This document shows positions 8,278 to 60,864 of a stretch of DNA of 64,000 nt, piece after piece. Positions within the stretch are counted from its first letter, which is position 1, and each line of letters opens with the position of its first letter. The notes beneath the pieces are model-generated. The model had not been told where the DNA came from and searched no databases. It worked only from the letters and a program-made list of their open reading frames with translations. Both the position numbers and the translations under genes were made by a program. Source of the stretch: a virus (taxonomy: Duplodnaviria > Caudoviricetes); the IMG/VR virus record IMGVR_UViG_3300033463_000011, positions 128,001-192,000 of that record; one strand, given 5' to 3'.

Positions 8278-8571
8278 ATGATTGTATTCGGTTATGCAAA
8301 AGATACAAAATATGCAGGCGATGGAACATTATTAATTCAAACAAGAATTCCTAATGCCCATGGTCCTTATCGTATTACTGATTACAACGGGAAGAAGATA
8401 AGAAACTATACAGAAGACAAAGATTTACCTTGGTACCCATCTTTATTGCTTCCATATTTGCCAGGAGATGGAGATGTTGTGGCTCTGACAAGTTTAGACA
8501 ACACTTCATCTTCCTGGTTAGTATTAGGATTAACAGGCGGTTCATATAACAACGGAGTAAGAGATTTATGA
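8278..8571 (+). CDS. Small gp5/Vgr OB-fold-like baseplate protein
   Basis: 'IQTRIPNAHG...LPWY..LP.DGDVV.L.....W.VLG' resembles the gp5 N-terminal OB fold. Confidence 0.55.
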   Translation: MIVFGYAKDTKYAGDGTLLIQTRIPNAHGPYRITDYNGKKIRNYTEDKDLPWYPSLLLPYLPGDGDVVALTSLDNTSSSWLVLGLTGGSYNNGVRDL

Positions 8572-8915
8572 AAATTTACTGCACAGAAAATAAACGACCT
8601 CTTGATAAATTCATCGGAAAAGATGTATGGATTCGTGTTAAAATACATGAAAGAAACTATGCAGGTAGATGGTACAGTTATTGGGACAAGCCTTACATGA
8701 TTCGTGTACTTGAATATGACCCTGAAGCAGATTGGTATGTTATTAACAAGATAATAGATACTTTTGGGCATGATAGAGATGGGCAGTATAAAGGAAATAG
8801 AACTCAAAAGCAAAAGGCTCGTGAGAATAAACACTATATCAAAAGAGCAAGTATTAAATTGGTAGAACCTGTTGAGATATTAACAACTCCCGAAATATTT
8901 GGAGAAGATTTATGA
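8568..8915 (+). CDS. MKIY/GKDxW paralog 1
   Basis: MKIYC...LDKFIGKDVWIR...PVEILTTPEIF. Confidence 0.85.
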   Translation: MKIYCTENKRPLDKFIGKDVWIRVKIHERNYAGRWYSYWDKPYMIRVLEYDPEADWYVINKIIDTFGHDRDGQYKGNRTQKQKARENKHYIKRASIKLVEPVEILTTPEIFGEDL

Positions 8916-9289
8916 AGATATATTGTAATAAAATTCCTGATATTCCAGATATTGATCCAGAACTAATGCGAGCTATACGTCAAATATGTAACAGAGACGC
9001 ATGGTTAGCTGTTAGATCAGAGGAATGGTATAATAAGTGGATTAAAGCAGCAATTGTTAATGGAGAATTAAAATTTGATTCAATATATAATAGTGCTTGG
9101 TACCCTAAACACGAAGTTATTGCAAAGGGACAAGACATTTCTTGCTGCGATTTAACTGCTACAGATATCGGTCTTGATGATTGTAGACTAATTAAACCTA
9201 TAGAGGTGTTATCTTCAGAAGAACTTGCAATGTATATTTCATCGGAAGATAATAGATTTAGATTTGACCCAGAGATATATAACGTATGA
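8912..9289 (+). CDS. MKIY/GKDxW paralog 2
   Basis: MKIYC...CNRDAWL...PIEVLSSEEL. Confidence 0.8.
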   Translation: MKIYCNKIPDIPDIDPELMRAIRQICNRDAWLAVRSEEWYNKWIKAAIVNGELKFDSIYNSAWYPKHEVIAKGQDISCCDLTATDIGLDDCRLIKPIEVLSSEELAMYISSEDNRFRFDPEIYNV

Positions 9290-9597
9290 AGATATATTGT
9301 TCACCAGATGATTATAGAGATTTAATAAAATTCAAAGGTAAAGACCTTTGGGTCAATGCTTATGTAAGTAAAAGATTTGGCAGCAGGAGCAGGTCATACG
9401 AATTTAAGCTTTGGATAAAAATACTGGATGTATATCATGACGAAGCTTCCGATATAACTTATTGTGAATATCTCGCATACACTCCAGATAACATAGTTAC
9501 AGCGCCTCCATTGCCCGCATATAGAATACAGATTATAAAACCTTTTGAAGTAATGACATATAATGAATTAAAGGAGAATTTTGATTCAATCGTATGA
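9286..9597 (+). CDS. MKIY/GKDxW paralog 3
   Basis: MKIYCS...GKDLWV...PFEVMTYNEL. Confidence 0.85.
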   Translation: MKIYCSPDDYRDLIKFKGKDLWVNAYVSKRFGSRSRSYEFKLWIKILDVYHDEASDITYCEYLAYTPDNIVTAPPLPAYRIQIIKPFEVMTYNELKENFDSIV

Positions 9598-9992
9598 AAA
9601 TATACGCAGCTACAAGAGAATTATCTTTTTATGACTTAATCGGCAAAGATGTTTGGGTTAAGTGCTATCACAAAATTGACGAGGATTTACTTGTTATTCC
9701 TCAAAAATTTTATGTTAAGGTTTTATACTTAGATGAAAATGAAAAAGGAGTTCCAGTTTTCAAATGCAATGCTATTGACTGTGATTATGTAGCTCGGGCC
9801 AACGAATATGAACATTTATCTGCAGAGAAAATAAATTCTTTTATCAATAAAATTGAAGAATTTCCTGAAGATGAGGACAACTATTTATCTTTAGTAATAC
9901 AGAAGCCTATACAAGCACTAACTACAGAAGAAATAATTGAAGCAATGTCTTCTAACGAAGACGAAGATAATGATGAGGATGAATATTTGTAA
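9594..9992 (+). CDS. MKIY/GKDxW paralog 4
   Basis: MKIYAA...GKDVWVK...PIQALTTEEI. Confidence 0.85.
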   Translation: MKIYAATRELSFYDLIGKDVWVKCYHKIDEDLLVIPQKFYVKVLYLDENEKGVPVFKCNAIDCDYVARANEYEHLSAEKINSFINKIEEFPEDEDNYLSLVIQKPIQALTTEEIIEAMSSNEDEDNDEDEYL

Positions 9993-10336
9993 TGAAGGTA
10001 AATCCACTCAATGCAGACAGTAATTTGGAAATAGCTGATAAACTCATCGGCAAAGATTTGTGGGTTAAGATATATAACCCAGATTACAATGCAATAAATA
10101 ACACAGCATTCTTGCACGTTTTGCATAAATATAACAGAGGTTATGGATATGATAACAAAATGTGGTATAAGTGCGAAATAATTCCTGAATATGCTATTAT
10201 AGATGGCGGCTATGATTCAGAAGATTGGGAAGTTATTTCCTCAATTATATTTTACAACGAGTTTGATATGAGAACATTTATATTTCAAGACGAATATTAT
10301 ACTACAGAAGAAATTCAAGAGATGTTTGAACAATGA
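9992..10336 (+). CDS. GKDxW paralog 5 (variant leader)
   Basis: MKVNPLNA...GKDLWVK...YTTEEI. Confidence 0.8.
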   Translation: MKVNPLNADSNLEIADKLIGKDLWVKIYNPDYNAINNTAFLHVLHKYNRGYGYDNKMWYKCEIIPEYAIIDGGYDSEDWEVISSIIFYNEFDMRTFIFQDEYYTTEEIQEMFEQ

Positions 10337-10686
10337 AAATATTAGCTTCAGTACAAGATAATAGAGAATTTTTAGATAAGTTAGTGGGCACAGATAGTTG
10401 GGTCTTATGTTATATTAGCAGATCATTTTCACCTAACGGAGACAGAAGATGGTCTAAAAACAGAATGTGGCTTAATTTTGATAGAAAAGTAGATCCAGCA
10501 CATTATGTAGTTCACTTAAAAATTGCAGGAATTGATGGTGATCCATATCTTCCTCCAATGTCGCAATTAGACGATTGTTTACATGGAGAAAGAACACTCT
10601 ATTTTAGAGATATAAAAGTAGTTAAACCTGTTGAAATGTTAGCAACAGATGAATTATTTTCTGGACCTGAACTGGACGAGGAGTAA
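10333..10686 (+). CDS. MKIY/GKDxW paralog 6
   Basis: MKILAS...GTDSWV...PVEMLATDELF. Confidence 0.85.
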   Translation: MKILASVQDNREFLDKLVGTDSWVLCYISRSFSPNGDRRWSKNRMWLNFDRKVDPAHYVVHLKIAGIDGDPYLPPMSQLDDCLHGERTLYFRDIKVVKPVEMLATDELFSGPELDEE

Positions 10687-10688
10687 CA

Positions 10689-11003
10689 ATGAAGATATAC
10701 GCATCAAAAGTAGATTTAGCTGATCTTGATTACTATGTCGGTAAAGATTTATGGGTTAGAGTTACTTCCGCTTCAACTACTTGTTGGGCTAAATTACTAT
10801 CTAAAGGCGAAGATAGTAGAAGTGTATATTACAGATGTTTAGCAATATTTGATGGAATGCTAGATGTTGACGGTATGATTCATCTAAACGCTTCAGCATT
10901 AGCTGAATTTTACGACCATATATACATAATGTGGACAGACAACTCGTATGTAGTTCAGCCTATAGATATACTTGAAGAAGACGAAATAATCGAGAGGATA
11001 TGA
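10689..11003 (+). CDS. MKIY/GKDxW paralog 7
   Basis: MKIYAS...GKDLWVR...PIDILEEDEI. Confidence 0.85.
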   Translation: MKIYASKVDLADLDYYVGKDLWVRVTSASTTCWAKLLSKGEDSRSVYYRCLAIFDGMLDVDGMIHLNASALAEFYDHIYIMWTDNSYVVQPIDILEEDEIIERI

Positions 11004-11006: not shown

Positions 11007-11351
11007 ATGAAGATATATGCATCATATTATCATGACCTAGACCAATTTGCTGGAGAAGATTTATGGGTTAAGATAGATTATCACATGGGTAGTAACTATG
11101 ATAATCAATCAATGTATGTTAAGGTCTTGCTTAGTTTTAGGGATACCGAATTCTTGTGGTACGAAGTTCAAGCCGTTGCTACAGATTGGGTAGAGTCCCC
11201 AGATTGCTATTTTGGATTAAGAGAATGTATGGAAAAAGCAAGATTAATAAAAGAAGGTGATTATAGTATATCACGCCCAATGGAATGTTATACTACAGAT
11301 GAAATGCTAGAGCTTCTTGGAGATTCTCTTGATAGAGGAATACTCGATTGA
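11007..11351 (+). CDS. MKIY/GKDxW paralog 8
   Basis: MKIYAS...GEDLWVK...PMECYTTDEM. Confidence 0.85.
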   Translation: MKIYASYYHDLDQFAGEDLWVKIDYHMGSNYDNQSMYVKVLLSFRDTEFLWYEVQAVATDWVESPDCYFGLRECMEKARLIKEGDYSISRPMECYTTDEMLELLGDSLDRGILD

Positions 11352-11360: not shown

Positions 11361-11723
11361 ATGAAAATATACGCGTCAACATCGGAAGATAGAAAGCATA
11401 AGATCTTGGAAAGCTTAGTAGGTAAAGATCTGTGGATTAAAGCAAAATTATATGAAGGTAACTTAGCAAAAAATGATTACTATGTGCATATCATTAAGAA
11501 ACTGCGCCCTCAAATTGGTTTTGATTACGAAGTTAACCGCATAATGGATAGCTCTGATCTTCCAGGATATGAAGATTCACAAGGAAGAATAACCTTAGAT
11601 GCTTTTCATAATGCCTATCTTGCACACAGTCATTGGATGAATGCATCTGATATACATCCAGTAATTCCAATTGAAGTGTACACATCAGAAGAACTATTTA
11701 TCGCCCCTGAGGAAGAACAATGA
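11361..11723 (+). CDS. MKIY/GKDxW paralog 9
   Basis: MKIYAS...GKDLWIK...PIEVYTSEELF. Confidence 0.85.
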   Translation: MKIYASTSEDRKHKILESLVGKDLWIKAKLYEGNLAKNDYYVHIIKKLRPQIGFDYEVNRIMDSSDLPGYEDSQGRITLDAFHNAYLAHSHWMNASDIHPVIPIEVYTSEELFIAPEEEQ

Positions 11724-12040
11724 AAATATACGCAAGCGATCAGAAAAATATTTTAGACAGATTGTGTGGCACAGATCATTGGATAAAAGTCGCTTACAAT
11801 AACCATATCTATCTGTTTAACATATTAGAACGATTTAAGAATATGGATGGCAGAATGATGTTAAGATGCAAAATGGTTATGTGGAATCAACTAGTTATGC
11901 CTAAAGATTACAGAAGATCAATAGATTTGATATACAAAATTGACAAATACTATTACGTATATGAAGATCTAGTAACGGTAAAAGAACCAATTGATGTGAT
12001 AACAGATGACGAATTAATTGATATGATACAAGGTACCTAA
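11720..12040 (+). CDS. MKIY/GKDxW paralog 10
   Basis: MKIYAS...GTDHWIK...PIDVITDDEL. Confidence 0.85.
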   Translation: MKIYASDQKNILDRLCGTDHWIKVAYNNHIYLFNILERFKNMDGRMMLRCKMVMWNQLVMPKDYRRSIDLIYKIDKYYYVYEDLVTVKEPIDVITDDELIDMIQGT

Positions 12041-12059: not shown

Positions 12060-12371
12060 ATGAAGATATATTGTAGCACAGAATCAGAGTTTGACAAATT
12101 TGTAGGAACTGACCTTTGGGTTAGGGCAAATTATTATGGAGGAAAATACTTCATAAGGTTTCTGTCCAAAAATAATTATGCAGACGAGCGTGGATATGTT
12201 ACTAATATGGTTAGAACACTTTGCGCAGGTGATGATGGATTCATTCATTATAGTCATGAATATGAATTAGAGTATGTGCAAATGGAAAAAAGTTGGTGTA
12301 GTGCAGAAAATCTATTATTAATTAAGCCAATAGAATGCTATACAACAGATGAATTATTCATAGTAGATTAA
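12060..12371 (+). CDS. MKIY/GKDxW paralog 11
   Basis: MKIYCS...GTDLWVR...PIECYTTDELF. Confidence 0.85.
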   Translation: MKIYCSTESEFDKFVGTDLWVRANYYGGKYFIRFLSKNNYADERGYVTNMVRTLCAGDDGFIHYSHEYELEYVQMEKSWCSAENLLLIKPIECYTTDELFIVD

Positions 12372-12380: not shown

Positions 12381-12740
12381 ATGAAGATATATTGTAGTAG
12401 AGATCCAAGAAAATTACTAAAACAGTATGTAGGTAAGGACATATGGATTAAAGTCCACTTGCCTAAATCTGCTCATCACCCAGATGATCCAAATGTCCTC
12501 TATATGAGGATATTATCCGAATCGGATAAGTGCTACACAGTTAACTTACTTAATCCGATAGTTGTAGACTATAACTTCGGCATGAATATAACAGATTATG
12601 ATTTAAATAAATTCTTAAATAAAATTAGTACTGTTGACAAAGATGACATAATGTTAATTGAACCTCTAGAAGCATATTCTACAGACGAAATATTTACTGA
12701 AGTACCTGATGATTATAACTACGAGGAAGATGGAGAATAA
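12381..12740 (+). CDS. MKIY/GKDxW paralog 12
   Basis: MKIYCS...GKDIWIK...PLEAYSTDEIF. Confidence 0.85.
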   Translation: MKIYCSRDPRKLLKQYVGKDIWIKVHLPKSAHHPDDPNVLYMRILSESDKCYTVNLLNPIVVDYNFGMNITDYDLNKFLNKISTVDKDDIMLIEPLEAYSTDEIFTEVPDDYNYEEDGE

Positions 12741-12743: not shown

Positions 12744-13208
12744 ATGGCAGAAACAACATCGTTATCATTTCCAAATATGTTCAACTTAATAAGTAATCAA
12801 GTATCTGTAGACGAGGACTTAAAGTCAGTTACTACTAGGTCAAGATTACTTATATTAACTGAGCCCACAGAATTATACAACAACCCTAACTTCGGTGTAG
12901 GATTAAAGCGTCATTTGTTTAAGTATAACACTGAAAATGAAAAAGCATTAATCAAAGATAGGATTGTTGCACAATTAAGATTACATGAACCCGATGTAGT
13001 TGCCGAAAAAACATCATTTACTGATGGATTATTATTCACAGGAGATTCCAGTTTACAACATGTTGATGATGCAAATGAATTAAATATGACTGTAGCAATG
13101 CTAACTACTTTCGGAAAAGAAATCTCACTTGATTTAAATCCTAAGCAACCTATAGAAGGCGAGTTAACTATAAATAGTTCGGGCTGGTCTATAACGGAGG
13201 TAGATTAA
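12744..13208 (+). CDS. Baseplate wedge protein, T4 gp25-like
   Basis: 'LLILTEPTELYNNPNFGVGLKRHLF...LRLHEP' gp25/GPW motif. Confidence 0.85.
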   Translation: MAETTSLSFPNMFNLISNQVSVDEDLKSVTTRSRLLILTEPTELYNNPNFGVGLKRHLFKYNTENEKALIKDRIVAQLRLHEPDVVAEKTSFTDGLLFTGDSSLQHVDDANELNMTVAMLTTFGKEISLDLNPKQPIEGELTINSSGWSITEVD

Positions 13209-13855
13209 TGAAGATATACGGTGGATATTCAATTAAACAAAAACAGAGTATCAATCTTATTAAGCAAGGAATTGATGATCACTTAAGCGAATTTTCTGAT
13301 TATGTTAGCTATGACATAAAAGCAGTAAAAAATGATGTAGATAATAGTTTTAATATATTATTACGCCCTAACTATTACGGCATTACTTGGAAGTATACTG
13401 TATCAATTGTACATAATTACATAGGTGAATCTCTTCATATTTTAGATAGCTATATTAATTCGAACGATACTGATAATTCTTTTGAAAAGATTAAACAATT
13501 TTCAGAATTCTTCGAGTACATAAATAATGTGGGCTGGAGAAGCATACTTTCAAATTATTTTACTTACTTAAATAAAGATCTAAACAATACAATAAAATAT
13601 TTGAAGAGAATTGAGGGAAAAGACTTGTGGGTTAAATGTAACTGTCTATGTTATAACGATGACTACGGCAGATATTCTTGGACTTCCGGTGGGTATGTTA
13701 AAATTTTACGTATAGAAGACGATGTAATAGAATATAATTACAAAACACTATATGGATCAGATGGCAGCGGATCATGCAATATTTATGATATACAATTATC
13801 TAGTCCTTTAGAGGTATTAAGTACAGAAGAGTTGTTAGATACAGATGCTACATAA
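13208..13855 (+). CDS. MKIY/GKDxW paralog 13 (extra N-terminal domain)
   Basis: MKIYGG; C-terminal GKDLWVK...PLEVLSTEEL. Confidence 0.8.
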   Translation: MKIYGGYSIKQKQSINLIKQGIDDHLSEFSDYVSYDIKAVKNDVDNSFNILLRPNYYGITWKYTVSIVHNYIGESLHILDSYINSNDTDNSFEKIKQFSEFFEYINNVGWRSILSNYFTYLNKDLNNTIKYLKRIEGKDLWVKCNCLCYNDDYGRYSWTSGGYVKILRIEDDVIEYNYKTLYGSDGSGSCNIYDIQLSSPLEVLSTEELLDTDAT

Positions 13856-13884: not shown

Positions 13885-14625
13885 ATGAGAATATATTCAT
13901 CAAAAACATCAGAAAAACTTGCAAAATTATCCGAGCTTAAAAGTTCTCAAAGTGAAATCAACAAAGCAAAACGCGCATTGAATAGAAAGATTAATGAAGT
14001 AAAGAAGCGAATTGACGCAGAATTTAAAGAAGAGGCCGCAATACTTCATACTGATTCTTTACTTAAAGTTAAAAATGAAAAATACGGGTTTGTTTTAAGA
14101 TTTTCTTCTACTTACGGAGTAAGGTGGTATGTAGATGTAGATGCAGATTCAATTAAGTCGCATATATTCAAAGAAGATAACATAATAGAATGCGGAGATA
14201 TATTTATTACAATTGGAAATATATTAAATAAAATATATAATAATTCGTTTGAAGATGAAATACTGGAGTTAAATACGCTAGACGACGAATATAAGCAATT
14301 GCAATCAGATGCTTTATATTTCAAATCGGGAATATCCGCTCTTGAGTTAGAAAAATTTGTTGGTAGAGATATATGGGTCGAAGCAAATATTAAACATCTC
14401 ACTAATTATTCAGTCCCACAACATGCATTCATAAAGATAAAAGATATAAAATCAGATAATAAGGTGGCGATTAGTTGGAAATTTGCTCATACTAATCGAG
14501 ACGGTACAATATATATTTCAGGATATGGTAGAGATGATGGATTAACAGATGCATATAACATATCATTAGTACAGCCTATAAATACATTAACAGATGAAGA
14601 AATGAATGAATTAATAAATTTGTAA
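13885..14625 (+). CDS. MKIY/GKDxW paralog 14 (extra coiled-coil N-terminal domain)
   Basis: MRIYSS; C-terminal GRDIWVE...PINTLTDEEM. Confidence 0.8.
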   Translation: MRIYSSKTSEKLAKLSELKSSQSEINKAKRALNRKINEVKKRIDAEFKEEAAILHTDSLLKVKNEKYGFVLRFSSTYGVRWYVDVDADSIKSHIFKEDNIIECGDIFITIGNILNKIYNNSFEDEILELNTLDDEYKQLQSDALYFKSGISALELEKFVGRDIWVEANIKHLTNYSVPQHAFIKIKDIKSDNKVAISWKFAHTNRDGTIYISGYGRDDGLTDAYNISLVQPINTLTDEEMNELINL

Positions 14626-14626
14626 T

Positions 14627-14929
14627 ATGAAGATATATGCTACAACAAATCAATATGATCTATCTCGATACTCGGGCAGAGATGTATATGTGTATGCTTG
14701 CGTGCAGGGAGTAAAGGTATCTTGGTATAAATGGACTAAAATAATAGATATTCACGGAGATGTTGCAAGTGTTATATTCTGGGACTATCCAGAATCCAAA
14801 CAGGTGTTTAATATTCCTCTAGAGTCAATTAGTATAGATACAGAGTTTCCTGTTGAGGTTATGACTTATAATGAGATACTAGATGAAAAATTAGACAATG
14901 CTAGAAGAAGATTAGCAGGAGAGAATTAA
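14627..14929 (+). CDS. MKIY/GKDxW paralog 15
   Basis: MKIYAT...GRDVYV...PVEVMTYNEI. Confidence 0.85.
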   Translation: MKIYATTNQYDLSRYSGRDVYVYACVQGVKVSWYKWTKIIDIHGDVASVIFWDYPESKQVFNIPLESISIDTEFPVEVMTYNEILDEKLDNARRRLAGEN

Positions 14930-14930: not shown

Positions 14931-15245
14931 TTGAAGATATATTGCAAGGAACAATTACATGAATCAAATCCTTATAAATATATAGGAAGAGATGTATGGA
15001 TCCATGTTTTGTATGGCGCTGATTATGCTTGGGTCAAATTCAAAGATAGCGGTAAAGACGAAAACGGATACTACTTCATTGTTGATTATGTAGACGACCA
15101 ATGGTTAGAAAACCCAGAATGTAATATAGAAATTGAAATGGATCATGATGCTAAATGGTATACACACCACATGTGCATATCTAATCCTGTGGAAATATTA
15201 ACAACGGAAGAACTTTTAGCTAGAGATTATGATGCATACATTTGA
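14931..15245 (+). CDS. MKIY/GKDxW paralog 16 (TTG start)
   Basis: MKIYC...GRDVWI...PVEILTTEEL. Confidence 0.85.
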   Translation: MKIYCKEQLHESNPYKYIGRDVWIHVLYGADYAWVKFKDSGKDENGYYFIVDYVDDQWLENPECNIEIEMDHDAKWYTHHMCISNPVEILTTEELLARDYDAYI

Positions 15246-15269: not shown

Positions 15270-15647
15270 ATGAAGATATATTGTAGCACTAACAAAAGTA
15301 TATTTGAGAAACTTGCAGGTAAAGATATGTGGGTTAAAGGAACTGCATCTCGTGATGCTGCAGGTATAGTTAGCACATTAACTATATCCGTTTGGTTTAA
15401 GATACTTTACGCAGATAGTATTATATGCCGTTTTAATATAGTTAATCCTTTAGTTATGTCAAATTCAGCTATACTTGAATGCTATATTGACGATACATAT
15501 ACAATGCATACAACAGATAAAGATAGTTCTATGACTTATACAATAAACTATCCTTTAGACACTCTTACAGATGAAGAATTCAAAGAGATAAAGCAACAAG
15601 ACAACTGGACAGCAATTTTGTTTAAAGAGTATTCTGGAGAAGCCTGA
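15270..15647 (+). CDS. MKIY/GKDxW paralog 17
   Basis: MKIYCS...GKDMWVK...PLDTLTDEEF. Confidence 0.85.
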   Translation: MKIYCSTNKSIFEKLAGKDMWVKGTASRDAAGIVSTLTISVWFKILYADSIICRFNIVNPLVMSNSAILECYIDDTYTMHTTDKDSSMTYTINYPLDTLTDEEFKEIKQQDNWTAILFKEYSGEA

Positions 15648-15967
15648 TGAAGATATATTGTAGTAACAATTCAAACGAACTCGACAAATTTATCGGCAAA
15701 GATATCTGGGTTAAGGTATATGACAAATATGTCGAGTGTTTTAAATACATACGAATTGTATCATCAAATAGCACTTCATACAGCTATAATCAATTATTTG
15801 CATCAAGTCTAGAAAATCCTTATGGTGATGTTATGTTTACCGGAGGCGGTAATCGCCTTTTAGGATACTTTACAAATAATGTTTATCAAGACTACAAAAG
15901 TACTTTAGAAATAGTGCATCCTGTAACTTGTTATACCACTTCTGAAATATTTCCGGAGGAAGATTAA
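15647..15967 (+). CDS. MKIY/GKDxW paralog 18
   Basis: MKIYCS...GKDIWVK...PVTCYTTSEIF. Confidence 0.85.
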   Translation: MKIYCSNNSNELDKFIGKDIWVKVYDKYVECFKYIRIVSSNSTSYSYNQLFASSLENPYGDVMFTGGGNRLLGYFTNNVYQDYKSTLEIVHPVTCYTTSEIFPEED

Positions 15968-16297
15968 ATGAAAATATACGCAAGTAAAAGATATCATTAT
16001 TATGAAGATATATTAGACGATATCTGCGGAAAAGATTTATGGGTATTTATACGATATAATTCATCTACTGTTTATGCACGTGGTGGATACTACCCTCAAA
16101 ATTATTGGGTACAAGTTGTACGCAAAGACAATGATAACTATATTGTAAAAATGATAAATGACAATACTTATGGATTTGACACTTTAGATGACATAGAACC
16201 TAATAAACTCAACACATTCAGAATTTTAGACATATATGAACCGTTAGAGTTGTTATCAACAGAAGAATTGATTGAAGATAAGGAATTAGATGAATGA
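15968..16297 (+). CDS. MKIY/GKDxW paralog 19
   Basis: MKIYAS...GKDLWV...PLELLSTEEL. Confidence 0.85.
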   Translation: MKIYASKRYHYYEDILDDICGKDLWVFIRYNSSTVYARGGYYPQNYWVQVVRKDNDNYIVKMINDNTYGFDTLDDIEPNKLNTFRILDIYEPLELLSTEELIEDKELDE

Positions 16298-16635
16298 AAA
16301 TATATTGTAGTAGCCAGAAACAGCTCAACAGATATGCAGGTAGAGATTTATGGTTTCATGGTAATATAAATAATCATGTAGCTAAAAATGGAGTTACTAC
16401 TTGGGTTAGAGTTTTAGATAAAGTGCCTTCGCAATATATTGATACTTATAAAGTTCAGTGTGTTCCTGATTTTCTTATTGAAGATGAATATTATTTTGAC
16501 ACTGAAAGAATTGTTGGTTGGCTGCAGGATATACGTAATGTGTCTTATGACAAGATTTACATAAGTGATGAAGCATTAACTTCCGAAGAATTGTTTGGAG
16601 ATAACTTATGGGAAGTTGAGGAGTGGATAAAATGA
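16294..16635 (+). CDS. MKIY/GKDxW paralog 20
   Basis: MKIYCS...GRDLWF...EALTSEELF. Confidence 0.85.
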   Translation: MKIYCSSQKQLNRYAGRDLWFHGNINNHVAKNGVTTWVRVLDKVPSQYIDTYKVQCVPDFLIEDEYYFDTERIVGWLQDIRNVSYDKIYISDEALTSEELFGDNLWEVEEWIK

Positions 16636-16979
16636 AAATATATTGTTCAAAAAATAATCCTACTATAGACGATTTCATCGGCAAAGATGTTTGGGTAAAA
16701 TGTTATAGGTCTGATAGATATGATTTCAAGAGATTAGTTTATGTTAATCTCTACGATAAACTTGGCGAAGATCAGTACTACGGAAAAAATATATCGGCTA
16801 ATGTTATAGATGATATGCGCACGGTATTTGATCAATACATGGATGTTAGCGGAAGAGACGATGTGAGAGATTTTGTTGAAGGTGAACCTTGGGAGTTTCC
16901 TGCAAAGTTGGAATTATTCAAACCAGTAGAAATAATTACACATGATGAATTAATTGATATGCTAGGTGATGAGGAATGA
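16632..16979 (+). CDS. MKIY/GKDxW paralog 21
   Basis: Start placed at the ATGA overlap (16632); MKIYCS...GKDVWVK...PVEIITHDEL. Confidence 0.85.
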   Translation: MKIYCSKNNPTIDDFIGKDVWVKCYRSDRYDFKRLVYVNLYDKLGEDQYYGKNISANVIDDMRTVFDQYMDVSGRDDVRDFVEGEPWEFPAKLELFKPVEIITHDELIDMLGDEE

Positions 16980-17305
16980 AAATATACGGATTTACAATAA
17001 ATAAGAAGCTAGATAGATTTGTAGGTAGAGATGTTTGGGTTAAAGTTTATCAAGACGCCGCTCCTGTTGTTACTGCACCTATTCTCTATATAAGAATTTT
17101 ATCCAGAGAAGGAAACAAACTTACACTAAACACACTGAATCCAGATATCGTTGAAAATAGCAGACACTGTAGAGATTTACGAATTATTTTTGAAAATATA
17201 GTAACTTGGCCTCAAGAAAGAATTTTACTAATAGAACCAGTTGAAGCATTAACAACAGAAGAACTAAAAGAGATAAACGAAGGAAATACAGATATAGTCG
17301 ATTGA
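16976..17305 (+). CDS. MKIY/GKDxW paralog 22
   Basis: MKIYG...GRDVWVK...PVEALTTEEL. Confidence 0.85.
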   Translation: MKIYGFTINKKLDRFVGRDVWVKVYQDAAPVVTAPILYIRILSREGNKLTLNTLNPDIVENSRHCRDLRIIFENIVTWPQERILLIEPVEALTTEELKEINEGNTDIVD

Positions 17306-19822: not shown

Positions 19823-20092
19823 ATGAAAATATACGCAACCGGAGTTCATAATGATATACTAAACAAAATAGTTGGTAAAGAATTATGGATAGAGGGTTCT
19901 TTAGAGCCCGATGACGAACCTGTGTATACATGGATACAGATAGCCGAAATAGATACATATGATGAGTCTTGTTATATTCATTTCGTAGATAATTGCATAA
20001 TCCGCTGTTTTTGGTGCCCAATTAATAATATTTCACTCAAATTTCCATATAATATCATAACAACTGACGAATTATCTGAATTGACATTATGA
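19823..20092 (+). CDS. MKIY/GKDxW paralog 24
   Basis: MKIYAT...GKELWIE...PYNIITTDEL. Confidence 0.85.
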   Translation: MKIYATGVHNDILNKIVGKELWIEGSLEPDDEPVYTWIQIAEIDTYDESCYIHFVDNCIIRCFWCPINNISLKFPYNIITTDELSELTL

Positions 20093-20439
20093 AAATATAC
20101 GCTAACAATTCAATCAAATCAATTTTAGACAAATTTATCGGCAAAGATTTGTGGATAAGAGTTCAGTTATGCGATCATATACCATATAGCATGTATTGGA
20201 TAATTATATTAGATAAATTTGAAAATCTTGACGGAACTTATTCTTATCATATAATGAAAGCACCTTCAACAGATAAAATTTTTGACGACTATTCATACAA
20301 CACGCTTTCTAGAAAAATACGTAGCCGAATAGCAGAAAGAGATTCTGATTTTGTTTTTGACATTAGTTGTGATAAAATTAGATTGACTAAGCCTCTTGAT
20401 GTAGCAACAACTGAAGAATTGTTTGGAGAACAAGAATGA
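20089..20439 (+). CDS. MKIY/GKDxW paralog 25
   Basis: MKIYAN...GKDLWIR...PLDVATTEELF. Confidence 0.85.
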   Translation: MKIYANNSIKSILDKFIGKDLWIRVQLCDHIPYSMYWIIILDKFENLDGTYSYHIMKAPSTDKIFDDYSYNTLSRKIRSRIAERDSDFVFDISCDKIRLTKPLDVATTEELFGEQE

Positions 20440-35148: not shown

Positions 35149-36162
35149 ATGAAGCGATATATAAAAGCAGTTGATATAACAGATGATTTTGTTACGCAGT
35201 TAAGACAAGCAATAAATTATTTGTTTAAATACACCTGCGATAAATATGGATTTGATTTGAGTAAAATCAGGATAGAAACGATCAAATTAGCAGAAAACTC
35301 CGTTAGAGTTTATTTCAGATATGAAAATAATTTATTAGATATTAGCCTTAAGATACCATTTGATGAGTCTGTTACGCTCGAAGAAAATTTATGGGCAAAC
35401 TGGATGATTGACGGTAAAAGTGATTATTATCCTGAAATGATAAAGGAGTTAATTGAGCATTCAGCACAGTTTAGCACGTATAGAGATAACATAATTTCTG
35501 CATACAATAGTATTGTAGAAATATTAAATAATTCTGAATTACTTGAATATTCGTTACAATTATCAACTCATTATAAAAATCGTGCTATAATATCTGGATT
35601 AGATGAGTTAAACGAATTCCTTGAGAGTACTGTACTTAGGCAAGGTAGTTTCATTAATTTTAAAGTAGATCCTATAAGAATAAAATATTATCCTAACAGA
35701 TTTTCAATAACTTTCGAAGACCCCGGCAATGGCCTTAATAGCCTTATCATTAAAGATAGTAAACATAATAACACAATTCAAATAAGTAGATGGCGATTAT
35801 GCGATATTGGAACCAGCTTTGCATATGGTAACAAATTTAATGCTTCTGCATTCGAGAACAAGGTAAAAATTTACGAAGAAGATTTCAAAGAATACTTGTC
35901 AAGATTGATACATCTAAACGCATACAACAAACGTATCGCAGAATTTATAGCTAAAGCAGAAAAAGCTATCCCCGGTATTGAAATAGATTATCAATCAAAT
36001 TATAACAACATTATATCACCGGAGTTCAAATATCAAATTTCATATCCCTCATTGTTTGGTTCATTAGATAGACAAATTGATGATATATTCATTGATGACT
36101 TGGATAAGGTGATTAAAAATCTAAAGGCAACTGTAGCAAGGTATAAGAAGTCAGCAAAATAG
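35149..36162 (+). CDS. Probable head-internal protein (MKRYIKA leader)
   Basis: Leader motif; similar to 36186. Confidence 0.6.
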   Translation: MKRYIKAVDITDDFVTQLRQAINYLFKYTCDKYGFDLSKIRIETIKLAENSVRVYFRYENNLLDISLKIPFDESVTLEENLWANWMIDGKSDYYPEMIKELIEHSAQFSTYRDNIISAYNSIVEILNNSELLEYSLQLSTHYKNRAIISGLDELNEFLESTVLRQGSFINFKVDPIRIKYYPNRFSITFEDPGNGLNSLIIKDSKHNNTIQISRWRLCDIGTSFAYGNKFNASAFENKVKIYEEDFKEYLSRLIHLNAYNKRIAEFIAKAEKAIPGIEIDYQSNYNNIISPEFKYQISYPSLFGSLDRQIDDIFIDDLDKVIKNLKATVARYKKSAK

Positions 36163-37288: not shown

Positions 37289-38176
37289 ATGCCTGAATAC
37301 ATAAAAGCAGCATTTGATAATGAAATTCCGTTTTGGTTAAGAAAAGATAAAGAAGCTCTCAGAGCACTTAATCGAAACGGGATAGATTTAAAGAAAGCAG
37401 AATATAGCATAAATAAAACAGGAAAAGCTGCAGACGATTTTGCAGTTTACTGTTTACAGCCTTATGAAGGGCATAGTAAATTAATAGTATGGATTCCGGG
37501 AATATATAATGACGATGAATATCTTGATGATCCGTATGATGATAAATATAAAGCAATCAAGTACATATCAAAGAAAAATCTCCCTATTAGAGATGTAGTA
37601 TACATTAATAAGAAATCGAATGCAAAGGAATGGAGAGATAAGTATAGAGATCCTAGATATACGTATCCAGATAATCGTCATGGTAGATATGCTGGTCAGT
37701 ACTATACGCCCCCTAGAACAAACTGGCGTGGGGAAGAAACTCCCGGAGAATGGAGTGAAACTGGAGAAAGGGTAAGATATGGAGAATATCGAGATAAATC
37801 TGGATATATTATTCCTGACCCTAAAGATAAACTTCTCGAATTTTATTCTTCAGACAAGGGCTATACAAGAATCAAAAAGAGACTTGAACAGGTTTATGCG
37901 GACCTAATTCAACTCCGCAAAGATTTATTTGACGTGGATTTTATGTCATTTGGGGAATACGAAGGTAGCACAGATTATATGAACATGTTGAATAGATTTG
38001 GCGATGTTTGTAGAGATTATAGATTGTGTATTAAGCGGTTGCAGGAATTTGAAAATCTTCCTGACACTGAGAAACAATACGGGCGATATTCTATTGAAAG
38101 CGTATTTGATGACTTAAGAAGCATGCTTGATGATATCAAGAGAATACGCAAAGCAATAGAATCAGGTAGATATTAA
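37289..38176 (+). CDS. Hypothetical protein (MPEYIKAA leader)
   Basis: AGGAG RBS; TAACCTTTTAT upstream. Confidence 0.65.
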   Translation: MPEYIKAAFDNEIPFWLRKDKEALRALNRNGIDLKKAEYSINKTGKAADDFAVYCLQPYEGHSKLIVWIPGIYNDDEYLDDPYDDKYKAIKYISKKNLPIRDVVYINKKSNAKEWRDKYRDPRYTYPDNRHGRYAGQYYTPPRTNWRGEETPGEWSETGERVRYGEYRDKSGYIIPDPKDKLLEFYSSDKGYTRIKKRLEQVYADLIQLRKDLFDVDFMSFGEYEGSTDYMNMLNRFGDVCRDYRLCIKRLQEFENLPDTEKQYGRYSIESVFDDLRSMLDDIKRIRKAIESGRY

Positions 38177-38197: not shown

Positions 38198-38452
38198 ATG
38201 AAATTTGATTTTTCACCTTATACAGGAATTAAAGCATCTGAAAAAGAAGCATCAAAAGATCCTCAGGAGAGGGTTGAAGATCAGTGCGATGCCATCGAAG
38301 CAGATTTTGATTTTGCGTTAGCAGGTATTGAAAAGTTAGCTAGAGATGGTGAGTATGAAGCTGCAAGCGATGCTGCAAACAAAATTCACGCAGTATTAAA
38401 CGAAGTTATCGCAGATATTGGAGATAACTTTACAAATGCTCAAGGGGTATAA
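38198..38452 (+). CDS. Small helical hypothetical protein (...IKAS leader)
   Basis: GAGGAG RBS. Confidence 0.65.
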   Translation: MKFDFSPYTGIKASEKEASKDPQERVEDQCDAIEADFDFALAGIEKLARDGEYEAASDAANKIHAVLNEVIADIGDNFTNAQGV

Positions 38453-38455: not shown

Positions 38456-39088
38456 ATGAAACTTTATATCTATGCTGAGAGAGATTTACATGATAGTAAG
38501 CCTCATATATTTTATAGTGAGGATTTCAGTGATAACGACATCGGCAATTGTTATGAAGTACTGAAGACATTCTTTGTAGATTGGCTTAATGAAAATGACA
38601 ATCCTTTCTTGGATGACGAAATGGATCACTTTGTACGTCGTGTAGACGGAAAACCTGCTATTGTAATTCCTAAAGGTGATATTATCACTATAACAGATAT
38701 TGATAATGGCGCTTTTGAGTTTGAAGTTCCATTTAACTACGAATCAGATACTTTTAGGTTTTGGGTAGGCGATAAATATGATACTCCGATGTATTTAAGA
38801 TGCACTGAAAGTGAATTAGTTGCTTGTGATATAACTGCTAATGAATCTTTAGATACTTGTGACAAGTATCAAGTTAGACATTTCGCTGGCGAAGGATGCG
38901 GACTCTTGGATTATTTCTCTTCAGATAATTGGAGTGATATTGAAGAAAAAGCACATGAAATGATTTCCAAAGGCGGATACATAGAATTAGCTAACACTGA
39001 AAGCGGAATCATGCTATTGATGTCTCATGATAATTACTTTGATGAGTTTGAAGGTGAATTTCCTATTAAAGAAGAGTGGATGTATTAA
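38456..39088 (+). CDS. Acidic hypothetical protein (MKLYIYA leader)
   Basis: ORF with leader motif. Confidence 0.6.
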   Translation: MKLYIYAERDLHDSKPHIFYSEDFSDNDIGNCYEVLKTFFVDWLNENDNPFLDDEMDHFVRRVDGKPAIVIPKGDIITITDIDNGAFEFEVPFNYESDTFRFWVGDKYDTPMYLRCTESELVACDITANESLDTCDKYQVRHFAGEGCGLLDYFSSDNWSDIEEKAHEMISKGGYIELANTESGIMLLMSHDNYFDEFEGEFPIKEEWMY

Positions 39089-39457
39089 ATGAAGGTCTAC
39101 GTTAAATCGGCATTAGACAACTCAAACATTCCTGATGAAAATAAGAACGGTGACTGCTTCAAAGTTGCGTTTGAAGCGTTAACACGAAATCATAACACAG
39201 GTTATTTAGTACATGGAGTTGTAACTGGTAGAGGTGCTATTGAAGGATTACAATATGCACATGCTTGGGTAGAAGATGCTGGTGAAGTATTTGATAATAC
39301 ACTTCCTGATGGATTAAAACAACTTCCAAAAGAAGTATACTATGGATTAGCTAATGTTGTATTGACACGTAAATATAATTTTAAACAAGCATTAGAAAAT
39401 GCAGTTAGTACTGAAACATATGGACCTTGGGATAATGTATTTGATAATTATTATTAA
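39089..39457 (+). CDS. Papain/transglutaminase-like Cys-His-Asp protein (MKVYVKS leader)
   Basis: GDCF ... LVHG ... HAWVE ... VFD. Confidence 0.6.
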   Translation: MKVYVKSALDNSNIPDENKNGDCFKVAFEALTRNHNTGYLVHGVVTGRGAIEGLQYAHAWVEDAGEVFDNTLPDGLKQLPKEVYYGLANVVLTRKYNFKQALENAVSTETYGPWDNVFDNYY

Positions 39458-41492: not shown

Positions 41493-41900
41493 ATGAAATT
41501 TACAAAGACAGTTCGCGCAAGCAAGAAGGTAGAGCCTTCAACAAAGCGTCCTATCCGCGCAAATCGTAGAGTGATCCGTTCTGACGAGGAAATTGAAGAC
41601 ATCGAAGATATCGATGTACCCGTTGACGAAGAGATCATTGATGAAGAGCCTGTTCAGGAAGAGCTTCTTTTCGAGGTTGGTGACGTTGCAGAAGTTATCG
41701 CTGAAGTTACAGGTGAGCCTGTTGACTATACAGTAGACGATGAGACAGCAGAAGTTACATTCTCTTATGGTGAGGATGAAATCACTGTTACCCCTGAGGG
41801 AACAGAGGAAGTTGTTGAAGATTCTACAAGAATCAGCAAAGCTGCAAAGAAGATCGCTGCTGCTAAGAAGGTAGCTGCTCCTCGCAAGCTTCGCAGATAA
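41493..41900 (+). CDS. Acidic core/scaffold-like protein with basic termini
   Basis: VRAS, IRAN, IRSD and IAAA sites; E/D-rich centre; capsid-like codon bias. Confidence 0.5.
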   Translation: MKFTKTVRASKKVEPSTKRPIRANRRVIRSDEEIEDIEDIDVPVDEEIIDEEPVQEELLFEVGDVAEVIAEVTGEPVDYTVDDETAEVTFSYGEDEITVTPEGTEEVVEDSTRISKAAKKIAAAKKVAAPRKLRR

Positions 41901-45471: not shown

Positions 45472-45996
45472 ATGAAACGCTACATAAAATCTTCAATAAA
45501 ACCAATAGATGCCATACCCGAGAATCCAAATATAAAGTCACGGGATTTGACACCTAAGAATTATAGCCAAAAAATTTATGATGATTTAAAAGAGGCATAT
45601 GATAAACATATTGCCGTTTTTGAATTTGAGGGCGATTATAACTACAATAACTTTACAACTTATGCACATGAGCCTATTAAAAGACTTACTCAGGAACTTA
45701 TAGTGCCTGGAGTTGAGAAGGCAATAAAAGAAAAGTTTATGAAAGATATGCATAAGGATATAAGCTATTTACCTAATGACCTTATTAAGTTAAATTTGGT
45801 AGATGGTTATGGTTCTTTTATAACAATAGTTACTATTCGTGGTGAAGATAGAAAACATGTTTATGGTAAAATAAATTTCAATTATGCCGAAGAACTTAAA
45901 ACCCGTTGCATAAGGAGAATTAAATTGCATTTGCAAGAACGACAATTTGAAAGAAACGCAGAACGTAGAAGGCGTAGTAAACTAGGAGGAATATAA
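45472..45996 (+). CDS. Hypothetical protein (MKRYIKSS leader)
   Basis: ORF with leader motif. Confidence 0.6.
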   Translation: MKRYIKSSIKPIDAIPENPNIKSRDLTPKNYSQKIYDDLKEAYDKHIAVFEFEGDYNYNNFTTYAHEPIKRLTQELIVPGVEKAIKEKFMKDMHKDISYLPNDLIKLNLVDGYGSFITIVTIRGEDRKHVYGKINFNYAEELKTRCIRRIKLHLQERQFERNAERRRRSKLGGI

Positions 45997-59271: not shown

Positions 59272-59332
59272 AATAAGAATCGTTAATATCAATACATAAT
59301 ATTTTAGTGCAATGCACAGAAAGGATCAAGTT

Positions 59333-60286
59333 ATGTCAAAAGATGGAAAGTCAAGAAAGTCCTATGCTTATTCCTTTAATTCAGATTTCTGGAGCGAGCA
59401 GAGAGTAAAGAAGGGGCTTACACTTAAGCAGATTGCTAGAACACTTGGAGTATCTAGAAGTGCGGTAGGCAACTACTTTTCAGGTAAAACAATACCACAT
59501 GATACTTTTATCGTGCGCGTATGCGATCTGTTAGGTGTAGACCACGATAAGGGAATGCTTGAATTTCAGCGAGCTAATCGTGCATACAATTCAGGAGCTA
59601 AGAAATCTTCTCGCTCTGGATCTAGCGTAGCATTCTCAACTAAGCGACCTTATGTTAAGAAGGGACAGAGACCTCAACAGCCTAAGCGGTTAGACAATTT
59701 CTGGATAAACAAGAAAAATGAGTTTAAGCTCACTAATAAAGAGATTGGCGAAATGCTTAAACTCAATGCTAACACTGTATGGGCTTATCTCAGCGGCTAC
59801 CTTATACCTCCGCAGAAAGCAATGGAAGACATCTGTGATCTCTTTGGAGTAAGTATTACTAGAGGTAAGCAGGAGTTCGAATTAGCACATAAGCAGTATG
59901 AGGAAGACCATTCTGGTAAGTACTACGCACCAGCTACTAAGCCGGAGCCTGCTGCAGAACCTAAAGTTGAACCCGCTGCAGAACCTAAAGTTGAACCTGC
60001 TGCAGAACCTGATGTTATTATTTATGAACACAGTAAGCCTGCTAAGCCCACTAACTACGCAAGAGAATATGCTATTGCTTCATGTCTCTACAAGTCAATA
60101 CCTTCTTATGAGAAGTTTATAACACTTCTTACAATTATTGAGAATAACTCAAGTAACATACTTGAAGCTGCATATAAGAAGGTTGATTTTGATACCTATC
60201 TTGAATTAGTATCAGCGGTTAGAGAAGTTGATACTGAAGATGACGATATGATGAAAGACGCTATTTTTAATCTTTTGAAGAGGTAA
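59333..60286 (+). CDS. Protein with two XRE HTH domains
   Basis: GLTLKQIARTLGVSRSAVGNYFSGKTIP and LTNKEIGEMLKLNANTVWAYLSG..P. Confidence 0.8.
   Translation: MSKDGKSRKSYAYSFNSDFWSEQRVKKGLTLKQIARTLGVSRSAVGNYFSGKTIPHDTFIVRVCDLLGVDHDKGMLEFQRANRAYNSGAKKSSRSGSSVAFSTKRPYVKKGQRPQQPKRLDNFWINKKNEFKLTNKEIGEMLKLNANTVWAYLSGYLIPPQKAMEDICDLFGVSITRGKQEFELAHKQYEEDHSGKYYAPATKPEPAAEPKVEPAAEPKVEPAAEPDVIIYEHSKPAKPTNYAREYAIASCLYKSIPSYEKFITLLTIIENNSSNILEAAYKKVDFDTYLELVSAVREVDTEDDDMMKDAIFNLLKR
59945..60010 (+). repeat. 24-bp coding tandem repeat (EPAAEPKV)
   Basis: About 2.7 copies of GAACCTGCTGCAGAACCTAAAGTT-like units. Confidence 0.8.
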
Positions 60287-60287
60287 C

Positions 60288-60482
60288 ATGCCCCGAAAGC
60301 TAAACTACAAACCTAAAGGGATTCTTTGTTCGGAATGTTATTTTGCTATGAAAATTGATAATAGTAAAGAAATTTACTATTGTACAAAATTCATAGCAAA
60401 TAACCGAAATCAAGTATTCAAAGGTGTCCATTCTTGTGAATTTGGAACAAAAGAAAAACCTGCGGAACTGCAGGAAGTATAA
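60288..60482 (+). CDS. Small Cys-containing protein
   Basis: CSEC...C...C. Confidence 0.5.
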   Translation: MPRKLNYKPKGILCSECYFAMKIDNSKEIYYCTKFIANNRNQVFKGVHSCEFGTKEKPAELQEV

Positions 60483-60522
60483 CCTTTTATAGATATATGT
60501 TTAATTAGGAGGTTATCTGAAG

Positions 60523-60864
60523 ATGAATCTTAAACATACAAAGATAATGGCAGCTGATGATTTATTTGACGAAAATATGAATTCTGACGAAGAGGCCTTA
60601 GGCAATCAGTTAGATGATATTCAAGACAACATTGAGGATATTCAAGATACCGTAGACGATATTCAAGAAGATGATATCGCTATTGATGTTGATAACAACA
60701 TTGTTAATCACCTCATTGCAGAATGCGAAAATTGCAAAGGTATATTTATTTCAGCAATGATTGCATCTGACCAAGATGTTGATAGCATAAACGGTGTATG
60801 TCCTCTTTGTAATAAAGACACTACACAAAATCTTAAATGGATTATCAAAGAGTATCCGGAGTAA
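60523..60864 (+). CDS. Acidic Zn-ribbon protein (...IMAA leader)
   Basis: CENC...CPLC; TAACCTTTTAT motif upstream. Confidence 0.6.
   Translation: MNLKHTKIMAADDLFDENMNSDEEALGNQLDDIQDNIEDIQDTVDDIQEDDIAIDVDNNIVNHLIAECENCKGIFISAMIASDQDVDSINGVCPLCNKDTTQNLKWIIKEYPE

Follow-up and report, generated by a model that had tools for sequence, protein, structure and literature searches.

A minimal N-terminal tag on dozens of proteins of an uncultured jumbo phage: a candidate capsid-targeting and cleavage signal

Why should dozens of otherwise unrelated phage proteins begin with the same few amino acids? The question is raised by a 64,000-nucleotide stretch of DNA, bases 128001-192000 of a single contig of 200,233 bp (IMG/VR record IMGVR_UViG_3300033463_000011) and hereafter the window, in which protein after protein starts with a leader such as MKIYA or MKRYIKA. 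The original prediction, made from the letters of the window, had read this leader as a capsid-targeting sequence (CTS) analogous to that of the phage T4 internal proteins, removed by a protease that cuts after a small residue instead of Glu. Here we present a computational analysis of the leader, of the protease encoded beside the capsid gene and of their relatives in metagenomes. That interpretation is supported, and none of the computational tests able to refute it did so. We favour, with some reserve, the reading that the tag is a compressed T4-like CTS, removed by a gp21-family protease with a herpesvirus-like Ala|Ser specificity (the bar marks the predicted cut); dozens of unrelated proteins are probably loaded into the capsid by the phage.

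The contig comes from an uncultured jumbo phage; its GC content is 31-38%, nearly every gene lies on the plus strand and the ribosome sites are of the Shine-Dalgarno (SD) type. Megablast with 20 kb of the window returned zero matches to cultured phages, and the closest named capsid proteins, from Bacillus phage HSE3, Listeria phage LIS04 (Thornevirus) and Streptococcus phage GXN1, are less than 30% identical. The head module in the window comprises an open reading frame (ORF) for a 497-aa protease (26308-27801; positions are those of the window unless marked as genome) followed by a Gp23-family capsid protein (27836-29275; Pfam Gp23, E = 1.5e-17). Baseplate genes (phrog_219, phrog_261) and a head-tail adaptor gene (40767) also lie inside the window, and the portal (genome 88144), tail tube and sheath genes lie upstream of it in the genome.

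Over the whole genome, 58 of 277 plus-strand proteins of at least 50 aa start with M[KR]xY, whereas [KR]xY follows only 4 of 996 internal Met residues, so that the genome-wide enrichment check proposed in the original prediction comes out in its favour. Tyr stands at position 4 in 23% of proteins vs 5.6% overall, and the full leader pattern continues in 55 of the 58 starts (binomial P = 4e-30). Class A leaders consist of MKIY plus A, C, G or S, and class B leaders of MKxY-[IV]-[KR]-[A/S/T], mostly followed by S, A or T; a third, long form, ..FTKYPSxY[IV]xA-S (sequence ..FTKYPSNYVGAAS-), occurs once in the genome, at 24119, and is frequent in relatives. Class A or B is found on about 59 proteins (21% of the proteome), with about 10 looser members besides; the leader is thus shared as had been claimed, on more proteins than the 39 or so first counted. 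The informative signature is M[KR]xY plus [IV]-x-[A/S]|[S/A/N/T]. The motif as first formulated, [I/V/L]-x-[A/C/S], is hardly enriched when taken alone (ratio 1.2), and this loose pattern was rejected as an uninformative test statistic.

Tagged genes are confined to, and around, the structural modules: none is found among 102 genes of the early small-gene arrays, the replication-like block and the region beyond 174.9 kb, vs 59 of 175 elsewhere (Fisher P = 2e-14). The leader is missing from these early and replication-like genes, in line with its absence after 47.5 kb in the original prediction, and the single exception then allowed, 60523, is weak and possibly due to chance. In the window, M[KR]IY plus a small residue opens 22 ORFs between 8568 and 20439 (14931 via a TTG start), where two more members of a paralogous family, named GKDxW, bear degenerate leaders (MKVNP at 9992, MKILA at 10333). 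MK.Y-type leaders are also found at 33351, 34215 (GTG start), 35149, 36186, 37289, 38456, 39089 and 45472, and [IV]-x-A-[AS] lies within 25 residues of the start in 24119, 23361, 38198, 41493, 60523 and the capsid protein at 27836. Every leader-bearing start listed in the original prediction is present in the sequence where it had been placed, and loose members such as 60523 and 38198 are individually not significant. The leaders are 5-7 residues long and without a hydrophobic stretch. A Sec or lipoprotein signal was considered, as MKIYC-S resembles the end of a lipobox, and was ruled out since no hydrophobic core of at least 7 residues is present.

The enzyme that would read such a tag is encoded in the head module. 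The 497-aa protease ORF is a fusion of a catalytic domain of about 165 residues and a coiled-coil half. It matches PHROG 207, head maturation protease, with E = 8e-19; the Pfam Peptidase_S77 model PF03420 matches the window protease below cut-off (22.7 vs 27 bits, E = 7.5e-5) and is precomputed on most of its homologs. A sequence search of the Protein Data Bank (PDB) gave only coiled-coil noise, and the relation to gp21 emerged only after folding: for the predicted protease domain (predicted local distance difference test score, pLDDT, 69), the best Foldseek match was T4 gp21 (5JBL; E = 4e-5, template-modelling score, TM, ~0.6, 24% identity), followed by the proteases of KSHV (Kaposi's sarcoma-associated herpesvirus), pseudorabies virus (PrV) and human cytomegalovirus (HCMV), with E = 0.04-0.3 and TM ~0.4. 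Among homologs, H70 and S125 are invariant and 55 residues apart, the same spacing as H85 and S140 of T4 gp21 (PMC12991175). By sequence and modelled fold, then, the protease appears to belong with gp21 (peptidase S77), given this match together with a catalytic His and Ser. The alignment of the protease domain contains a single invariant His, and the second invariant His of a Ser-His-His triad was not found. Prediction of a complex between the protease domain and a tagged paralog scored 0.01, which is evidence neither way.

If the leader ends in a site for this protease, the same site should be found in the other proteins that a prohead protease must cut, and it is in exactly those proteins that [IV]-x-A-S is strongly over-represented. 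The scaffold half of the fusion holds eight [IVL]-x-A-S sites (residues 166, 284, 299, 338, 377, 401, 439 and 446) where 0.23 are expected from the bodies of all other proteins (35 sites in 50,486 residues; Poisson P = 2e-10), and none of 20,000 composition-preserving shuffles reached eight. Scaffolds of 13 relatives with capsid identities of 56-85% have 2-7 sites each, and the best 120 of more than 1,205 database homologs have 3-8 each (mean 5.7 vs 0.39 expected). Cleavage sites of the Glu type are not enriched, either in those best 120 (6.1 [ILV]-x-E vs 7.0 expected) or in the scaffold of this phage (7 vs 8.1 expected). In the scaffold-only logo P3 is I or V, P1 is A with minor Ser, and P1' is S more than N, A or M; AS follows [IV]-x 60 times in the scaffolds vs 5.4 expected, and I or V occupies P3 of 58 of 82 Ala-Ser dipeptides. 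One site, [IV]-A-A-[S/A/T] at residues 166-169, sits right where the catalytic domain ends in almost every homolog. Furthermore, the capsid propeptide of all relatives has [IV]-T-A-S near residue 15, [IV]-N/M-A-G/S around residue 38 and, immediately ahead of the Gp23 domain, two sites at 82-93, and the counterparts of the small proteins 23361 and 41493 in relatives keep equivalent sites. The leader end, [IV]-x-[A/S]|[S/A], thus matches in silico a motif whose enrichment in the scaffold is 15-25-fold and which the capsid propeptide conserves.

HSE3 and LIS04 served as a control, since a long protease ORF of the same kind lies upstream of their capsid genes. In its C-terminal half [IVL]-x-E is enriched in both phages (25 vs 13.8 expected and 17 vs 8.1 expected), which is the T4-type signature, and [IVL]xAS sites number 0-1. 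With Ala-type sites in the clade and Glu-type sites in its cultured relatives, the specificity appears to have been switched within the clade, and the small-residue, T4-like cleavage signal of the original prediction gains support from both the scaffold and the capsid propeptide. HSE3 and LIS04, too, have the gp21-like protease fused to a coiled-coil scaffold that is long, acidic and rich in [ILV]-x-E, and the fusion therefore predates the specificity switch.

The tag recurs well beyond this genome. A scan of IMG/VR with a DNA pattern for MKRYIK[AS], whose fixed third codon biases position 3 of the clade logo towards Arg, gave 84 matches on 63 stretches, with at most 13 per contig; an in-frame stop lies within 15 codons upstream in 75 of the 84, and an SD-like site precedes 69. 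Class B leaders are present on 146 of 858 genes of the pattern loci, a figure that is partly ascertainment, as the loci were found by the pattern. Pooling the pattern loci, this genome and the loci of capsid relatives gave 233 distinct tagged proteins in 150 BLAST clusters, and in 120 cluster representatives, with a mean column identity of 4%, only M1, K2 and Y4 are near-invariant. That unrelated proteins share the leader, as originally noticed among genes of the window, therefore extends to at least 150 protein clusters across the clade. All four near-complete tag-rich contigs found by tag DNA alone encode the protease type (41-46% identity, 4-5 [IV]xAS sites each); a fifth tag-rich contig, a 26%-complete fragment, gave no protease match. 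In an independent, complete 163-kb genome with terminal repeats, 22 of 200 genes in 15 clusters are tagged and the GKDxW family is absent, so the tag system is independent of the GKDxW array. Metagenomes contain the clade in abundance: its protease has over 1,200 homologs, many of them encoded on contigs of some 200 kb. A literature search for leader peptides returned nothing relevant.

Neither paralogy nor base composition nor protein fold accounts for the tag. All-against-all BLAST of the tagged proteins with the first 12 residues removed placed 29 of those of this genome in a single family, the GKDxW paralogs, and left 30 tagged singletons, about 20 of them outside the family. In an alignment of 34 paralogs with a mean column identity of 22%, M1, K2, I3 and Y4 are among the few near-invariant columns. 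The leader is also portable: a GKDxW member at genome 100981 has the class B leader MKVYVRSS where its paralogs have MKIYAS, and 24119 bears the long leader where its two BspA-type leucine-rich repeat (LRR) paralogs bear MKVYI.AA. Because these two proteins differ in form from their own paralogs, the leader forms are interchangeable, and because the Y-[IV]-x-A core is displaced but intact in 24119, it presumably works away from the extreme N-terminus. In the AlphaFold2 model of the paralog at 10689-11003 (pLDDT 88), residues 1-12 are coil with a pLDDT of 66 and the domain begins at about residue 13, so that the tag is predicted to be an unstructured N-terminal overhang outside the folded domain.

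The shared start might mainly be a linker for recombination and cassette exchange, or a relic of common descent, with no role in the protein; the arrays are indeed tandem and hypervariable, and T-even internal-protein loci are thought to swap genes via their conserved CTS. The conserved stretch, however, is merely 15-21 nt with frequent synonymous differences, the tag persists on scattered single genes and in genomes whose proteases are only 41-46% identical, and it is the most conserved part of a family that averages 22% column identity. The displaced and internal copies of the motif and the co-occurrence of tag and protease also speak against a mere linker. We consider this account very unlikely as the whole explanation, and the two roles, linker and targeting signal, could coexist.

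Codon usage also bears on whether something other than a protease reads the tag. Lys is encoded by AAA 28 times and by AAG 24 times, and Tyr by TAT 32 times and by TAC 22 times, G/C-ending codons being commoner than in gene bodies. This argues against AT-rich start-region bias, which the original prediction had named as an alternative and which was ruled out on this evidence; the tag is conserved, and selected, as a peptide and not as codons. A modifying enzyme, a chaperone, a localisation system or translation itself, acting through the 5' coding region of the mRNA, might nevertheless recognise the start, its resemblance to a protease site being coincidence; a second codon AAA or AAG within an AT-rich start region would favour initiation, and Ile3 is nearly always ATA. 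We regard this as improbable: the Lys and Tyr codons vary synonymously and lean to G/C-ending forms, Tyr4 and the small residue are kept as amino acids over 150 clusters, the motif is also displaced (24119) and repeated internally in the scaffold and the capsid propeptide, every tag-rich genome (4/4 near-complete) carries the protease type, and a leader with no hydrophobic core is no secretion or lipoprotein signal.

What the tag is attached to was approached through annotation and fold. By Pfam and PHROG, nearly all tagged proteins are without a known family. The exceptions are the BspA-type LRR proteins (genome 104406 and 106107) and a PRTase domain in 25412 and in a homolog at another locus, with one match each among the 120 representatives to ART-PolyVal, an S-adenosylmethionine (SAM) lyase family, DUF5662 and DUF3293; the ART-PolyVal and SAM-lyase carriers are not among the ten longest of these representatives. 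A head-protease propeptide on an ADP-ribosyltransferase is reminiscent of T4 Alt, and SAM lyases are known as anti-restriction enzymes. The GKDxW domain is a small beta-barrel for which the fold search gave only weak SH3/Sm/chromo-like matches (E > 0.1), and its genes form tandem, hypervariable arrays. Also, the GKDxW paralogs at 8568-20439 share a conserved acidic C-terminal motif, P-[IV]-E-x-x-T-T-x-E-E, which could be a second terminal signal or an interaction site.

Tagged proteins might alternatively be assembly factors, extra parts of the scaffold or internal body from which the tag is removed as a propeptide and which are degraded or expelled at maturation instead of being delivered to the host. 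In T4 the core proteins gp67 and gp68 undergo such processing, as do the internal-body proteins of phiKZ (PMC9026906), tagged genes are interleaved with baseplate and head genes, and the tag does end in what would be a protease site. Most tagged proteins, however, have one site at the extreme N-terminus, like T4 internal proteins, where the scaffold has multiple internal sites; they fall into 150 unrelated clusters with fast turnover between relatives; and effector-like domains (ART-PolyVal, SAM lyase, PRTase, BspA-type LRR) are present among them. Single sites, turnover and effector-like domains better suit accessory cargo than conserved assembly parts, and we judge the assembly-factor explanation unlikely.

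If the tag is instead a compressed CTS, the steps might be as follows. The Met-Lys-x-Tyr part would dock the protein onto the prohead core, that is, the coiled-coil scaffold fused to the protease, and the tag would bind this core, possibly in the substrate groove of the still-inactive enzyme, so that cargo becomes physically encapsidated. The end of the tag, [IV]-x-[A/S/C] plus S, A, T or N, would be what the gp21-family serine protease of the phage itself recognises. Once the prohead is assembled, this enzyme would cut itself free at the conserved [IV]-A-A-S that closes its catalytic domain, fragment the scaffold at [IV]-x-A|S sites, and trim the capsid-protein propeptide and the tags, the latter at a scissile bond whose exact position we infer from the motif. 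Mature cargo would remain in the head, to be ejected with the DNA into the host and to act there.

Several points weigh against this account. The clade has no cultured member, and with the nearest named capsid proteins less than 30% identical, no published virion proteome is applicable to it. Gene starts were called by a heuristic of our own. P1 of the leader is often Ser, and also Cys or Gly, where P1 of the scaffold is mostly Ala (Cys at P1 occurs in leaders only, with zero cases in scaffold sites); the leader may therefore be a suboptimal site, or the cut bond may be shifted by one residue. Ile3 of the leader is an ATA codon in 30 of 34 cases vs 38% ATA in gene bodies genome-wide, which hints at a constraint at the nucleotide level or at recent common descent in the paralog array. 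More distant relatives keep the protease sites but have few tags close to the capsid gene, and in several relatives with this protease type MK.Y tags are scarce or absent over the 20 kb surrounding that gene, so that protease specificity and tag expansion are separable. A propeptide of five residues (MKIYA) is, to our knowledge, shorter than any documented targeting signal. Finally, some 60 different packaged proteins would be a great many; the SPN3US head holds more than 50 different proteins (PMC10052503).

Extending the compressed-CTS reading, we tentatively propose, as an idea that may well prove wrong, that a large clade of ~200-kb uncultured phages re-tuned its gp21-family protease from Glu to a herpesvirus-like Ala|Ser specificity, and that a minimal label of MK.Y plus cut site, universal to the cargo, loads more than 50 different, rapidly diversifying proteins per genome, here including about 40 hypervariable small beta-barrel paralogs. 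Entering the cell together with the DNA, this cargo would serve as an arsenal against the host or its defences. The switch in specificity could keep the protease from being noticed by host sensors that respond to I/L-x-E cleavage, for instance the activation loops of cyclic-oligonucleotide-based antiphage signalling systems (CBASS), which serve as sensors of such cleavage (PMC12991175). If true, a gp21-fold enzyme that cuts at Ala|Ser, as herpesvirus assemblin does, would connect the two ends of this protease lineage, phage and herpesvirus, and offer a natural series for mapping the determinants of the S1 pocket. Likewise, a tag of 5-7 residues would be the shortest packaging signal known and a practical handle for loading proteins into phage particles, and if about one-fifth of jumbo-phage genes encode co-injected proteins, much genomic "dark matter" would become readable as delivered effectors.

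Features of the window that bear on the tag and its putative protease are collected in Table 1.

Table 1. Tagged genes and putative substrates of the prohead protease, in window coordinates
Feature	Position	Strand	Remarks
GKDxW paralog, short leader MKIYC	8568..8915	+	
Small protein, short leader MKIYC	8912..9289	+	BLAST singleton after trimming
GKDxW paralog, leader MKIYC	9286..9597	+	
GKDxW paralog, leader MKIYA	9594..9992	+	
GKDxW paralog, degenerate leader MKVNP	9992..10336	+	
GKDxW paralog, degenerate leader MKILA (Tyr to Leu)	10333..10686	+	
GKDxW paralog, leader MKIYA	10689..11003	+	Member that was folded
GKDxW paralog, leader MKIYA	11007..11351	+	
GKDxW paralog, leader MKIYA	11361..11723	+	
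GKDxW paralog, leader MKIYA	11720..12040	+	
GKDxW paralog, leader MKIYC	12060..12371	+	
GKDxW paralog, leader MKIYC	12381..12740	+	
215-aa protein, not GKDxW family, leader MKIYG	13208..13855	+	
246-aa protein, not GKDxW family, leader MRIYS	13885..14625	+	
GKDxW paralog, leader MKIYA	14627..14929	+	
GKDxW paralog, TTG start, leader (M)KIYC	14931..15245	+	
GKDxW paralog, leader MKIYC	15270..15647	+	
GKDxW paralog, leader MKIYC	15647..15967	+	
GKDxW paralog, leader MKIYA	15968..16297	+	
GKDxW paralog, leader MKIYC	16294..16635	+	
GKDxW paralog, leader MKIYC	16632..16979	+	ATG 16632 within GTG ORF from 16623
GKDxW paralog, leader MKIYG	16976..17305	+	
GKDxW paralog, leader MKIYA	19823..20092	+	
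GKDxW paralog, leader MKIYA	20089..20439	+	
Small head-module protein, N-terminal NITA-S	23361..23696	+	Positional counterparts keep KITAS, KVTAS or PVKASS
372-aa protein, long leader ..FTKYPSNYVGA-A	24119..25237	+	Paralog of BspA-type LRR proteins (genome 104406, 106107)
265-aa protein, MKRYVRN then KVYA-G	25412..26209	+	PRTase domain at C-terminus
Predicted prohead protease domain, residues 1-165	26308..26802	+	Predicted gp21/assemblin fold; invariant H70, S125
Fused coiled-coil scaffold half, 8 [IVL]xAS sites	26803..27801	+	First site at domain boundary, conserved
Major capsid protein propeptide, residues 1-93	27836..28114	+	Gp23 domain next
Capsid propeptide candidate sites ITA-A (15-18), INA-G (35-38), VMA-A (82-85), IMA-K (90-93)	within 27836..28114	+	Conserved
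249-aa tagged protein, leader MKIYIKS-T	33351..34100	+	
309-aa tagged protein, GTG start, leader (M)KIYC-R	34215..35144	+	
337-aa tagged protein, leader MKRYIKA-V	35149..36162	+	
354-aa tagged protein, leader MKIYA-A	36186..37250	+	
295-aa tagged protein, variant leader MPEYIKA-A	37289..38176	+	MKMYIKAA on homolog in a relative
84-aa protein, GIKA-S at residues 10-14	38198..38452	+	Loose member
210-aa tagged protein, leader MKLYIYA-E	38456..39088	+	
122-aa tagged protein, leader MKVYVKS-A	39089..39457	+	
135-aa basic/acidic protein, TVRA-S at residues 6-10	41493..41900	+	Two such sites in relatives' homologs
174-aa tagged protein, leader MKRYIKS-S	45472..45996	+	
113-aa protein, KIMA-A at residues 7-11	60523..60864	+	Weak, outside structural module, possibly chance match

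Other features of the locus were seen in passing. Between the capsid gene and the tagged cargo genes lie two large HNH/homing-endonuclease-like ORFs (29478-31364 and 31509-33317; phrog_3339, phrog_12131, phrog_559), with paralogs at genome 62495 and 94403; relatives likewise have one HNH-like ORF directly after the capsid gene. A 491-aa protein of the head/neck module (42000-43475), which has no leader, resembles phrog_3636, a DNA-binding protein, over its C-terminal 130 residues (E = 5e-10). In the baseplate region, a 585-aa protein (6505-8262) with an endolysin-like N-terminal domain (phrog_21357, E = 3e-13) is probably a tail-associated lysin. The ORFs at 43831-45096 and genome 50131-51435 encode paralogs of roughly 420-434 aa, nearly identical at their N-termini but inserted in neighbourhoods that are otherwise unrelated to each other; the pair may represent a mobile-element gene. 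The tRNAs at 48673-48907, 49328-49401 and 53596-53669 form a cluster (Leu-taa, Pro-tgg, Gln-ttg), including a tRNA with a four-base anticodon (tttc) according to ARAGORN at 48762-48842 and a marginal fifth match at 48843-48907. In about 2.4 kb at ~51400-53800 neither strand has a convincing ORF, and no Rfam match reaches the gathering threshold, the tRNA-Gln at the edge excepted.

Three known systems provide a context for the tag. The T4 CTS is MKTYQEFIAE (doi 10.1101/2021.01.19.427310), in which targeting depends on residues 4 and 7 and processing on residues 8 and 10, with gp21 cutting after L/I-x-E (PMC9026906). As in T4, a short N-terminal tag is common to otherwise unrelated proteins, starts with Met-Lys-x-Tyr, the Tyr4 of which is critical for targeting in T4, and ends in the motif at which the gp21-family protease of the phage itself appears to cut; the capsid protein is of the Gp23 type and the cargo genes are hypervariable. 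Unlike in T4, the tag has 5-7 residues instead of 10, with the P3-P2-P1 site placed directly after M-K-x-Y; P1 would be Ala or Ser (Cys), followed by Ser or Ala, and not Glu; about 59 genes are tagged instead of a handful; and the scaffold is fused to the protease, where T4 gp22 is separate.

The cleavage consensus of herpesvirus assemblin is (V/L/I)-x-A|S, with a release site of the form Y-V/L-K/Q-A|S. Release (R) and maturational (M) sites have been described for assemblin (PMC4498786), and a substrate of the HCMV protease contains ..Asn-Ala-Ser-Ser.. (doi 10.1101/2025.10.17.683123). The phage protease would share with assemblin (S21) its [IV]-x-A|S specificity and its fold, and both have the protease upstream of a fused scaffold with a conserved site at the domain boundary, a likeness in function that does not make the phage enzyme a member of the family. 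At its end, Y-I-K-A-S, the class B leader also resembles the release-site consensus. The structural similarity, however, is remote, with the E and TM values given above, there is no second invariant His, and in herpesviruses the site is not known as a general cargo tag.

The T4-type prohead proteases characterised so far, from T4 and from the giant phages phiKZ (gp175), 201phi2-1 and SPN3US (gp245), all cut after Glu, those of the giant phages at S/A-x-E or A-x-E, and the propeptides of giant-phage head proteins are mostly long, 111-254 residues (PMC9026906, PMC10052503). The phage described here resembles these giant phages in being a jumbo phage whose gp21 homolog has diverged; further likenesses are N-terminal propeptides on many head proteins, paralog families among internal proteins, and redundant multiple sites in long propeptides. 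They differ from it in their Glu cleavage, and no universal short tag has been described for them. What is new here, set beside all three systems, is the apparently switched specificity, the minimal length of the tag and the scale on which it is used.

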